DNA of 64,000 nt, from assembly GCF_048403405.1 (NCBI RefSeq), contig NZ_CP183129.1, one strand, 5' to 3'. The position numbers and the translations under genes were made by a program. The notes below the pieces were generated by a model that saw only the letters and a list, made by a program, of their open reading frames with translations, ran no database searches and was not told where the DNA came from. Shown piece after piece: positions 52,457 through 58,780 of the stretch (the first letter of the stretch is position 1; each line of letters starts with the position of its first letter). Origin of the DNA: Escherichia coli (GTDB lineage: Bacteria; Pseudomonadota; Gammaproteobacteria; Enterobacterales; Enterobacteriaceae).

Positions 52457-53353
52457 ATGGACATTTTTATTTCGAAAAAGATGCGCAATTTCATTTTATT
52501 AGCGCAAACCAATAATATTGCCCGGGCGGCAGAAAAAATCCATATGACGGCTTCGCCATTTGGTAAAAGCATTGCCGCGCTGGAAGAACAAATTGGCTAT
52601 ACGCTATTTACCCGCAAAGATAATAATATCAGCCTCAATAAAGCCGGACAGGAACTGTATCAAAAACTGTTCCCGGTTTATCAACGACTTTCTGCGATTG
52701 ATAATGAAATCCATAACTCAGGGCGTCGTTCACGAGAAATTGTGATTGGCATAGATAATACTTATCCGACAATTATTTTTGATCAGTTGATTAGTCTCGG
52801 AGATAAGTATGAAGGCGTGACCGCCCAGCCAGTTGAGTTCAGCGAAAACGGCGTTATCGATAATCTTTTTGACCGTCAGTTAGATTTTATTATCTCCCCA
52901 CAGCATGTATCTGCACGAGTTCAGGAACTGGAAAACCTGACTATCAGTGAACTACCACCGCTGCGATTGGGCTTTCTCGTTTCTCGCCGTTATGAAGAGC
53001 GACAAGAGCAAGAGCTGCTTCAGGAGCTACCCTGGCTGCAAATGCGCTTTCAGAACCGGGCCAACTTCGAAGCAATGATTGATGCGAATATGCGACCTTG
53101 TGGGATCAATCCCACCATTATTTATCGTCCCTACAGTTTTATGGCCAAAATCAGCGCCGTGGAGCGCGGACATTTTCTGACGGTGATCCCGCATTTTGCC
53201 TGGCGACTGGTGAATCCGGCAACGCTGAAATATTTTGATGCGCCGCACAGGCCGATGTATATGCAGGAATATCTTTATTCAATCAGAAATCATCGTTATA
53301 CCGCCACGATGCTTCAGCATATTGCTGAAGATCGTGACGGGACGAGTCATTAA
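52457..53353 (+). CDS. ygfI: LysR-family transcriptional regulator YgfI
   Basis: 298-aa ORF recognised as YgfI. Confidence 0.88.
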   Translation: MDIFISKKMRNFILLAQTNNIARAAEKIHMTASPFGKSIAALEEQIGYTLFTRKDNNISLNKAGQELYQKLFPVYQRLSAIDNEIHNSGRRSREIVIGIDNTYPTIIFDQLISLGDKYEGVTAQPVEFSENGVIDNLFDRQLDFIISPQHVSARVQELENLTISELPPLRLGFLVSRRYEERQEQELLQELPWLQMRFQNRANFEAMIDANMRPCGINPTIIYRPYSFMAKISAVERGHFLTVIPHFAWRLVNPATLKYFDAPHRPMYMQEYLYSIRNHRYTATMLQHIAEDRDGTSH

Positions 53354-54828
53354 CCCAGCATCGAGCCGGTTGCAATTAAATTACGGTGTAAATCGAAGAC
53401 GTGGCTAAGATCGTGGTGAATATGTCCGCCGGGCGCATTTTCCAGATAGCGATGCAGATAATCCCGATACATAGGATGTGCACAATTATCAATGATAGTG
53501 CGGGCGCGTTGAAGCGGGGAAAGACCACGCAGATCGGCGATGCCTTGTTCGGTGATGATCACTTTGACGCTGTGTTCGCTGTGATCAACATGGCTGCACA
53601 TTGGCACGACGGTTGAGATCTTGCCTTCTTTAGCAATCGACGGGGCCATAAAGATCGACAGATACGCGTTGCGTTCAAAATCACCGCTGCCACCGATGCC
53701 GTTCATCAGATCGACCCCGGCTACGTGCGTTGAGTTGGCATGCCCGTAAATATCAAACTCCAGGCCGACGTTCAGAGCGATGACGCCCAGACGACGGATG
53801 ATTTCCGGGTTATTGGAAATTTCCTGCGGACGCAACACAATGCGGCTGGCAAAGTAATCCATATTGTCGTAAATCTTGCGCAGGGAATCGGCCGAGATAG
53901 TCAGGCTGGAGGCGCTGGCCCCGCTGATTTTGCCGGTTTCCAGTAAATGCACCACCGATTCCTGTAGCACTTCCGAATACATCATAAACGGAGGAATTTC
54001 CGGGTTTTCCCCTAGTCGCGCCATGACTGCATTATTGATGTTGCCTACGCCACTTTGCAGCGGCAGAAATTCCGGCGGAATACGCCCATGCGCCATTTCC
54101 TGCAACAAGAACGTGACCACGTTATCGGCAATCTGCTGGCACATGGGATTTTGCTTATCCAGCATATTACCGGCGTCAGGCAAGTTGGTTTCCACGACGG
54201 CGACAATCTTTTTCGGATCGATTTGCACATAGCGGGTACCGACGCGATCCATTGCATGGAAGATCGACACGCTATTGCGCCGCGGTGGCGCGCCAGGAAT
54301 CACAATATCTGCCAGTTCTGCAACGCGCGGATCGTGATAGTGATTAAGTTCAATGATCACTTTCTTCGCTCGCAGCAGCCAGGTCGGCGCATTACCGATC
54401 CCGCTGGTTAACCAGACTCGACCATCCGGTGCCAGTGCCGATGCTTCGATGACGGCAACATCAATGTCGCCGAAGAAACCGTAATTGACCATTTGCGCCA
54501 CTTCGCTCAAATGCAGGTCAACGAAACTCACCGCGCCCTGATTGATCTTTTTACGTAAACCGGACGATGTTTGATATGGCGCACGCCAGGAAACAGCATC
54601 GGCGTCAGAAAGTACATCGTCAGCGGCGGCGCTGATTGACGCCCCCGTCAGCAGGCGAATTTGATACGGCTTTTTGGCCTCATGCTGTTCGTTAGCTCTG
54701 CGGGCAATCGCGGTGGGTAAGGCTTTCGGCGAACCCGCTGGGGTAAAGCCGCTAAATGCCACCATGTCGTTATGCTGGATAATTTCTGCCGCTTCATCGG
54801 CGGTCATCCTTGTCCACTGAGTTTCCAT
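53350..54828 (-). CDS. scpC: Propionyl-CoA:succinate CoA-transferase
   Basis: 492-aa ORF recognised as ScpC (YgfH). Confidence 0.93.
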   Translation of the reverse strand: METQWTRMTADEAAEIIQHNDMVAFSGFTPAGSPKALPTAIARRANEQHEAKKPYQIRLLTGASISAAADDVLSDADAVSWRAPYQTSSGLRKKINQGAVSFVDLHLSEVAQMVNYGFFGDIDVAVIEASALAPDGRVWLTSGIGNAPTWLLRAKKVIIELNHYHDPRVAELADIVIPGAPPRRNSVSIFHAMDRVGTRYVQIDPKKIVAVVETNLPDAGNMLDKQNPMCQQIADNVVTFLLQEMAHGRIPPEFLPLQSGVGNINNAVMARLGENPEIPPFMMYSEVLQESVVHLLETGKISGASASSLTISADSLRKIYDNMDYFASRIVLRPQEISNNPEIIRRLGVIALNVGLEFDIYGHANSTHVAGVDLMNGIGGSGDFERNAYLSIFMAPSIAKEGKISTVVPMCSHVDHSEHSVKVIITEQGIADLRGLSPLQRARTIIDNCAHPMYRDYLHRYLENAPGGHIHHDLSHVFDLHRNLIATGSMLG

Positions 54829-56643: not shown

Positions 56644-58780
56644 GATGCTGGCTTATCAGATTCAGTGCGTCGCGCACGCTGTCGAGCATAGGTGTACCTG
56701 GACCATAAATCGCCGCCACGCCGCGCTCTTGCAGGAAGGCGTAATCCTGCGGCGGAATGACGCCACCGGCGACTACGCAGATATCTTCGCGTCCCCATTT
56801 TTTCAGCGCTTCGACCAGTTCCGGGATCAGCGTTTTATGACCGGCAGCCAGTGAGGATGCGCCCACTACGTGAACGTCATTTTCTACTGCCAGGCGGGCG
56901 ATCTCTTCAGGTGTAGAGAACATCGGGCTTAAATCTACGTCGAAACCGAGGTCGGAATAGGCGCTGGCGATCACTTTCGCGCCGCGATCGTGCCCATCCT
57001 GACCCATTTTAGCGATCAGAATGCGCGGGCGACGACCATTGTCGGCAAGGAACAGCTCCGTTTGCGCAACAATGGCATCGAACTCGGAGGCCGATTTCTC
57101 AGACTGATGATAGCTTTGCGCAATCACGCCGGTAACACACTGGCTTGGCACCAGATAACGGTCGAAAGCGGCTTCCAGCGCATCGGAAATTTCACCCAGG
57201 GTGGCGCGAACGCGAGCGGCATTAACAGCGGCAGCCAGCAGGTTTTCGTTATGCTGTGCGGCGTGAGTCAGGGCGTTCAACGCGGCGGTTACGGCGGCAT
57301 CATCACGGGTGGCGCGAATGCGTTCCAGCGAAGCAATTTGCTCGTTACGCACCATCACGTTGTCGATCTCAAGGACGTCGGTTTCGTCTTCGTGATCCAG
57401 TTTGTACTTGTTGACACCAACGATGACACGCTTGCCCTGGTCGATCAGCGACTGTTCGCGCGCTGAGGCCTCTTCGATCATTCGTTTTGGCAGACCTGCT
57501 TCGATCGCTTTCGCCATACCACCGGCTTCGTCGATCTGTTGGATAATAGCTCTGGCTTGTTTGACGATTTGATCGGTCAGCGACTCAACGTAATAGGATC
57601 CGGCCAGTGGATCGACGGTGCGGCAGAGTTCTGATTCTTCCTGAATGATGATCTGGGTATTGCGGGCAATGCGTGCTGAGAAATCGGTAGGCAAACCAAG
57701 CGCTTCGTCAAAGGCGTTGGTATGCAGTGACTGAGTACCGCCCAGCGTTGCAGCCAGTGCTTCAATGGTGGTGCGGATAACGTTGTTATACGGATCCTGT
57801 TCAGTCAGGCTCCAGCCTGAGGTCTGGCAGTGGGTACGCAGCGCCAGTGATTTCGGATCCTGTGCGCCAAATCCACTGACCGCTTCGCTCCATAAATAAC
57901 GTGCCGCACGCAACATGGCGACGTTCATAAACAGATCCATGCCAATGCCGAAGAAGAACGACAGGCGAGGAGCGAAGTCATCAATTTTCAGCCCGGCGGA
58001 GATTGCTGCTTTGATGTACTCAATCCCATCAGCGAGCGTAAATGCTACCTGCTGCACGCAGTTGGCACCCGCTTCACCCATATGGTAACCGCTGATACTG
58101 ATGGTATTAAATCGCGGCATGTTGCCGGAACACCAGGCGATGATGTCTGCGATAATACGCATTGACGGTTTTGGCGGGTAAATATAGGTGTTGCGGCAAA
58201 GATACTCTTTGAGGATATCGTTTTGAATAGTGCCGGTCAGTTTATCGGGTGTAACACCTTGCTCTTCTGCGGCGACAATATAAAACGCCAGTACTGGTAG
58301 TACTGCGCCATTCATGGTCATCGAAACCGACATTTTATCCAGCGGGATCTGGTCGAACAGGACTTTCATATCTTCCACGGTGTCGATAGCAACGCCCGCT
58401 TTGCCGACGTCGCCCGCCACGCGCGGGTTATCGGAGTCGTAGCCTCGGTGGGTGGCAAGGTCAAACGCAACGGAAAGACCTTTTTGCCCGGCGGCCAGGT
58501 TACGGCGATAAAAAGCGTTGGACTCTTTTGCTGTTGAAAAACCAGCATACTGACGGATGGTCCACGGTTGGGCGGTATACATAGTGGCACGCGGGCCACG
58601 AACGTAGGGGGGCAAACCAGGAAGGGTACCTGTCACCTCCAGATTATCGAGATCGGCTTCGGTATACAGCGGCTTGATGGCGATCCCTTCCGCGGTTTGC
58701 TGAACCAGCGAGTCGACAGTTTTCTCCCGACGGCTCAATTCCTTGTTGGCAAGCTGTTGCCACTCCTGCACGTTAGACAT
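56636..58780 (-). CDS. scpA: Methylmalonyl-CoA mutase (B12-dependent)
   Basis: 714-aa product starting [14 protein letters not shown]; recognised as ScpA (Sbm). Confidence 0.95.

Follow-up and report, generated by a model that had tools for sequence, protein, structure and literature searches.

An intact native scpA-argK-scpB-scpC (sbm) operon in an Escherichia coli isolate, set against the loss of the operon in other lineages

Results

Gene content and layout of the operon

The four genes scpA, argK, scpB and scpC (sbm, ygfD, ygfG and ygfH) lie together in a 64,000-nt stretch of the Escherichia coli contig NZ_CP183129.1 (RefSeq assembly GCF_048403405.1). This stretch is called the window below, and all positions refer to it; the features are collected in Table 1. 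The open reading frames listed between positions 51500 and 61000 place the operon on the minus strand, reading from right to left, with the scpC stop and the scpA start at the two ends of the interval 53350-58780. A first-pass annotation had reported an intact operon of four full-length genes over exactly this interval, without stating the strand. We find the native chromosomal operon of E. coli, almost certainly with all four frames intact and in its usual position between argP and srsR.

The genes are tightly packed as an operon. An 8-nt stretch is shared by the end of scpA and the start of argK, and the mutase gene thus directly adjoins the gene for its GTPase partner, as expected of a MeaB gene. 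Ten nucleotides separate the argK stop from the scpB start, and 23 nt the scpB stop from the scpC start. At the far end of the operon, scpC runs towards the convergent gene srsR, and the stops of the two genes overlap by 4 nt. Ribosome-binding sites of the type GGAG/AGGA were found 6-8 nt upstream of the scpA, scpB and scpC starts. Two of the mechanically derived reading frames extend further upstream than the assigned ATG codons, that of scpA to a TTG at 58801 (721 amino acids) and that of scpB to a GTG at 55679 (275 amino acids).

Comparison with K-12 MG1655 and the closest genomes

As the reference we used positions 3057000-3070000 of the MG1655 chromosome, and we combined a gene-by-gene comparison with a global alignment of window positions 53000-59200. 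The alignment ran through 6201 bases without a gap; thus, there is no insertion or deletion relative to K-12, either in the genes or between them. Each gene matches its K-12 counterpart in length, begins with the same ATG, ends with the same TAA and contains no internal stop. The first-pass annotation had named an alignment to the K-12 operon as its check, and that alignment revealed neither a frameshift nor a premature stop that had been overlooked. Gene identities and gene order likewise agree with MG1655 (b2917-b2920), where the same genes are flanked by argP and srsR, with the RefSeq annotation of strain GN02461 and with the NCBIfam assignments described below.

In total, 98 nucleotide differences from K-12 were counted in the four genes, with 10 amino-acid differences among 1798 residues, so that the proteins are 99.1-100% identical. 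The nucleotide identity was 98.2% for scpA, with 39 differences and five exchanges relative to b2917 (H27Q, I398V, V537A, Q576L and V705A), and 97.3% for argK, with 27 differences and three exchanges (Q16K, Y50F and T54A). The corresponding value for scpB was 99.2%, its six differences leaving the protein unchanged, and scpC (98.2%) showed 26 differences and two exchanges (N11D and V277E). The ratios of nonsynonymous to synonymous substitution rates (dN/dS, Nei-Gojobori) were 0.045 for scpA, 0.037 for argK, 0 for scpB and 0.024 for scpC. When the four genes were pooled, the ratio of the nonsynonymous to the synonymous proportion of differences (pN/pS) was 0.035, which indicates that purifying selection acts on all four proteins.

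We then compared the 6.2-kb stretch by megablast with 5426 complete E. coli genomes. Among the matches listed, it was 100% identical in GN02461, 4621, MS 69-1, TUM1226 and two further genomes. The RefSeq record of GN02461 carries scpA, meaB, scpB and scpC as intact coding sequences between argP and srsR, and the alleles, identical to those of the window, bear WP_ accessions as intact proteins. Positions 19559-64000 of the window are collinear with GN02461 and contain only five mismatches.

Protein families, motifs and structural relatives

Besides gene integrity, the family membership of the four products, their sequence motifs and their near-identity to characterised proteins of K-12 can be read directly. 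Each protein matched its NCBIfam model, with E-values from 0 to 1e-146; the gene identities are therefore far beyond chance. ScpA matched the methylmalonyl-coenzyme A (CoA) mutase equivalog NF006944 over residues 5-713 (1248 bits, cut-off 876), ArgK the MeaB equivalog NF006958 (494 bits, cut-off 329), ScpB the methylmalonyl-CoA decarboxylase equivalog NF008506 (487 bits, cut-off 257) and ScpC the YgfH subfamily TIGR03458 (754.5 bits, cut-off 658.7).

ScpA combines the barrel and the B12-binding domain of a mutase with a full-length equivalog match. The Pfam domain MM_CoA_mutase (PF01642) covers residues 28-539 (782 bits), and the B12-binding domain (PF02310) covers residues 586-701. Residues 6-700 align with structures of the human mutase MUT (926 bits), in which an identical segment lies opposite the DGHDRG motif of ScpA at residues 595-600. 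This motif has the form DxHxxG, which supplies the histidine ligand to cobalt in the base-off/His-on binding mode. Further motifs are RQYAGF at residue 76 and SGYHM at residue 230. The K-12 protein has known B12-dependent mutase activity, as cited in two studies (PMC5512728, PMC3850637), and ScpA of the window, which differs from it in five of 714 residues, probably interconverts succinyl-CoA and (R)-methylmalonyl-CoA in the same way.

ArgK has two motifs expected of a GTPase of this family, a P-loop (GTPGAGKS, residue 61) and the NKxD motif for guanine specificity (NKDD, residue 200), and aligns over its full length with PDB 2P67, a structure of the E. coli protein. The name argK used in the first-pass annotation denotes the correct gene, but the label is historical, the product being MeaB/YgfD, the GTPase that partners the mutase. 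In the printed alignment, all 261 residues of ScpB are identical to PDB 1EF8, the decarboxylase whose biochemistry and structure have been characterised. ScpC is a member of the YgfH subfamily with the N- and C-terminal AcetylCoA_hydro domains (PF02550 and PF13336), and it is homologous to the solved CoA-transferases 2NVV, 2G39 and 4EU3. Its SEVLQ (residue 285) and GGSGDF (residue 379) segments are conserved in the alignments with 2NVV and 2G39. By analogy with AarC, SEVLQ may hold the catalytic glutamate of the class I CoA-transferases. None of the ten substitutions relative to K-12 falls within DGHDRG, RQYAGF, SGYHM, the P-loop, NKDD, SEVLQ or GGSGDF.

The mutase/MeaB (MMAA) pairs of Propionibacterium, Methylobacterium and human mitochondria show the same two-domain mutase with a DxHxxG motif and likewise a G3E-family GTPase partner with a P-loop and NKxD; ArgK scored 262-304 bits against MeaB/MMAA structures. 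In E. coli, however, a decarboxylase and a CoA-transferase take the place of the epimerase and the carboxylase or transcarboxylase to which the other pairs are coupled, and no epimerase gene is annotated alongside the E. coli mutase and its GTPase.

Leader region and transcription signals

The leader between argP and scpA differs from that of K-12 by five substitutions and no insertion or deletion. Just past the argP stop it contains a stem-loop with a perfect 13-bp stem and a folding energy of -17.9 kcal/mol (z = -5.2 relative to shuffled sequences). We infer that this element is a candidate hairpin at which the argP transcript ends; as such, it would keep read-through from reaching scpA. A T-run does not adjoin the stem, and the scan for consensus terminators gave no call at this site. 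Between positions 53100 and 59300, two sigma-70-like promoter matches were found, fewer than in shuffled sequence and both on the strand opposite to the genes. Rfam families were detected in or upstream of the operon neither at the gathering score in the scan of the window nor at E <= 1 in positions 53000-59300; thus, there is no detectable cobalamin riboswitch in this region. A run of eight T residues in the argP-scpA spacer (58858 region) is prone to insertion and deletion: TBU0218_11-3CC and C325 each differ by one base there, with the coding sequence unaffected.

Occurrence and loss of the operon in E. coli

The first-pass annotation had called the intact operon expected for E. coli. This holds for about 79% of the complete genomes, as 80% or more of the 6.2-kb query is present in 4272 of the 5426, but about 21% share one 4.26-kb deletion and others are disrupted independently. 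The intact state thus prevails without being universal. Most of the remaining genomes carry a single allele covering 30% of the query, which has lost the 4.26 kb; what is left of scpA (approximately 930 bp from its 5' part) and of scpC (153 bp from its 3' end) is annotated as fragments of pseudogenes. A 131-bp probe spanning the junction was fully covered in 1114 genomes (20.5%), CFT073 and UPEC_U013 and 1112 others. CFT073 is a uropathogen and belongs to phylogroup B2; a literature search found the deletion neither linked to a phylogroup nor otherwise described. The deletion allele occupies the same position between argP and srsR, with flanks that are 96-98% identical. Compared with it, the window represents the undeleted state, in which a 15-bp microhomology is present at both deletion endpoints, one in the 3' end of scpC and one in scpA. 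Two 10-bp direct repeats lie nearby in scpA, and the 63 bp between them are also lost in the deletion allele.

Independent disruptions were seen in several genomes. MB51 carries an IS1-flanked deletion, ET734 a 5-bp insertion in scpA and the laboratory strain HE_100 a 1-bp insertion in scpB. In ECP19-2498 (O157:H7), a 28-bp insertion interrupts scpC and scpB is also annotated as frameshifted. C325 has lost approximately 62 bp near 56970-57014, its scpA is annotated as frameshifted, and its meaB contains an internal stop; we considered whether this loss is the 63-bp deletion of the common allele and rejected the idea because of its different position. Some of these disruptions may be assembly errors. 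An evenly spaced sample of 47 full-length loci was screened for a difference in length from the query, a criterion that passes over nonsense mutations in loci of equal length. Six of the 47 differed. Four of the five inspected carry annotated pseudogenes, and the sixth is a K-12 MG1655 record that is one base shorter. Strong purifying selection among the intact alleles coexists with recurrent loss. This population picture, with a shared microhomology-bounded deletion and scattered disruptions, is a mildly interesting by-product and concerns genomes other than the one analysed here.

Other features of the window

The convergent neighbour of scpC, srsR (ygfI), encodes a LysR-type protein. The published SrsR/YgfI work that we searched does not mention the scp genes, and thus no regulation of the operon by SrsR. 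In three genomes with a damaged operon (VTB96929v, C325 and ECP19-2498), srsR is also annotated as a pseudogene with an internal stop, which might mean that srsR and the operon are functionally connected or might reflect only the quality of the assemblies.

Elsewhere in the window lies a complete IS1 element of 768 bp. Its terminal inverted repeats measure 23 nt, a target duplication of 9 bp flanks it, and both of its reading frames, InsA and InsB, contain IS1 Pfam domains. It is missing from the otherwise near-identical GN02461, in which its site corresponds to the intergenic region between hemW and a gene for a TRAP-transporter substrate-binding protein. The collinearity with GN02461 ends exactly at a tRNA-Phe (GAA) gene. 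Beyond it lie genes for a tyrosine integrase and a TraI_2-type relaxase/helicase, in an insert unlike that of GN02461. Positions 1-3929 resemble the terminal part of an island at tRNA-Phe, integrative and possibly conjugative, that is distinct from the GN02461 island. At the other end of the window, two RNAs scored well above their gathering thresholds, namely 6S RNA (ssrS) and a Sib antitoxin RNA (RF00113) that adjoins a gene annotated as an Ibs-family toxin; both are expected in this chromosomal region.

Table 1. Positions of the operon, its leader, the deletion endpoints and other features in the window
Feature	Positions	Strand	Description
scpA (sbm)	56636-58780	-	Adenosylcobalamin-dependent methylmalonyl-CoA mutase; 714 amino acids, 2145 nt, from ATG
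argK (ygfD/meaB)	55648-56643	-	G3E-family GTPase partner of the mutase; 331 amino acids, 996 nt
scpB (ygfG)	54852-55637	-	Methylmalonyl-CoA decarboxylase, crotonase fold; 261 amino acids, 786 nt, from ATG
scpC (ygfH)	53350-54828	-	Propionyl-CoA:succinate CoA-transferase; 492 amino acids, 1479 nt
argP-scpA intergenic leader	58781-58983	-	203 nt; GGAG ribosome-binding site (58787-58790) 6 nt upstream of the scpA start
Stem-loop in the leader	58945-58975	-	Candidate argP transcript-end hairpin
15-bp microhomology, left copy	53489-53503		TCAATGATAGTGCGG; in the 3' end of scpC, one deletion endpoint
15-bp microhomology, right copy	57762-57776		TCAATGGTGGTGCGG; in scpA, other deletion endpoint
10-bp direct repeats	57791-57800 and 57854-57863		CGGATCCTGT; in scpA
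IS1	18791-19558	-	768 bp
InsA	19228-19503		IS1 reading frame
InsB	18806-19309		IS1 reading frame
IS1 target duplication	18782-18790 and 19559-19567		GTACATGTT; 9 bp
tRNA-Phe (GAA)	3854-3929	-	End of collinearity with GN02461
Tyrosine integrase	2544-3620		
TraI_2-type relaxase/helicase	885-2534		
Sib antitoxin RNA (RF00113)	62667-62817	-	
6S RNA (ssrS)	63466-63649	-	

Discussion

The operon described here is the well-studied "sleeping beauty mutase" operon of E. coli, at its established site and in the form that most genomes share, and makes an unsurprising record. Nothing in the sequence speaks against its identity or integrity. The first-pass annotation had assigned the genes to a B12-dependent route from succinate to propionate, which is the published assignment (Haller et al. 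2000, as cited in PMC3850637 and PMC5512728). In this cycle, the established biochemistry of the K-12 orthologues according to the same sources, ScpA would carry out the adenosylcobalamin-dependent rearrangement of succinyl-CoA to (R)-methylmalonyl-CoA, while ArgK/MeaB would bind the mutase as a GTPase and assist or protect its cofactor state. ScpB would then decarboxylate methylmalonyl-CoA to propionyl-CoA, and ScpC would pass the CoA of propionyl-CoA on to succinate, which frees propionate and restores succinyl-CoA. The net reaction would be the conversion of succinate to propionate and CO2. The catalytic activities and the physiological use of the operon in this isolate are predicted by analogy with K-12, and an intact sequence does not imply a working pathway.

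Three points weigh against a working route in vivo. No sigma-70 consensus-like promoter was found on the coding strand between positions 53100 and 59300. This lack of a match is weak evidence, yet it agrees with the description of the native operon as hardly expressed (PMC3850637). Furthermore, E. coli makes no B12 and depends on its uptake, and the mutase is therefore an apo-enzyme unless the cofactor is supplied (PMC3850637). The native operon has also been described as an incomplete pathway as long as a methylmalonyl-CoA epimerase is not added: the mutase yields the (R)-enantiomer, the reported substrate of such decarboxylases is the (S)-form, and propionate formation from glucose was seen only with the added epimerase (PMC5512728). 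We found no epimerase gene annotated in the operon or in the GN02461 stretch that matches window positions 3854-64000, positions 1-3853 having been scanned in part. If the epimerase step is required, which is disputed, the pathway would be incomplete within the positions scanned. That other lineages have repeatedly lost the operon shows it to be dispensable.

These points lend themselves to a different account, which we regard as a serious though not the favoured possibility: the operon may be intact but cryptic, contributing, as in K-12, little or nothing to metabolism most of the time, with its frames under occasional or weak selection. The missing promoter match, the strong hairpin after argP, the low expression and the apo-form of the mutase would all fit a cryptic locus, as would the deletion of the operon in about 21% of genomes and its frameshifts in several others. 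The pooled pN/pS value, however, reflects sustained purifying selection, which would be unexpected for a permanently silent locus.

Somewhat less probable, in our view, is another role, in which the operon would handle methylmalonyl-CoA or propionyl-CoA from the catabolism of amino acids or odd-chain compounds and the genes would serve the textbook cycle only in part. The operon was found to enhance the degradation of amino acids to propionate (PMC5512728), and its metabolic context has been called ambiguous (PMC3850637). The reconstitution of succinate-to-propionate conversion in vitro with the K-12 enzymes (Haller et al. 2000, as cited in PMC3850637) speaks against this reading, and the sequence itself favours neither role over the other.

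It seems rather unlikely that the presence/absence polymorphism of the operon is adaptive and not the outcome of neutral decay, with the lineages that keep it using B12 and succinate derived from the gut microbiota; the strong selection on intact alleles, the deletion shared by about 21% of genomes and the independent frameshifts elsewhere would accord with such a reading. A hidden missense inactivation of at least one gene, which would leave an operon that only looks intact, is very improbable: ten amino-acid differences from K-12 do exist, but they spare the motifs inspected, the same alleles are intact WP_ proteins in GN02461, at least five further genomes share a 100% identical 6.2-kb locus, and the model scores lie far above their cut-offs.

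The native operon with four intact frames is the best explanation. Any claim about propionate formation in this isolate depends on expression, on the supply of B12 and on the disputed epimerase step, and the finding has little import beyond correct annotation. If the polymorphism were adaptive after all, the intact copy would mark a difference in metabolic niche from the lineages that carry the deletion. For metabolic modelling or engineering at the strain level, what matters is that the isolate has the full native sbm operon and therefore differs from about one fifth of sequenced E. coli, CFT073 included.

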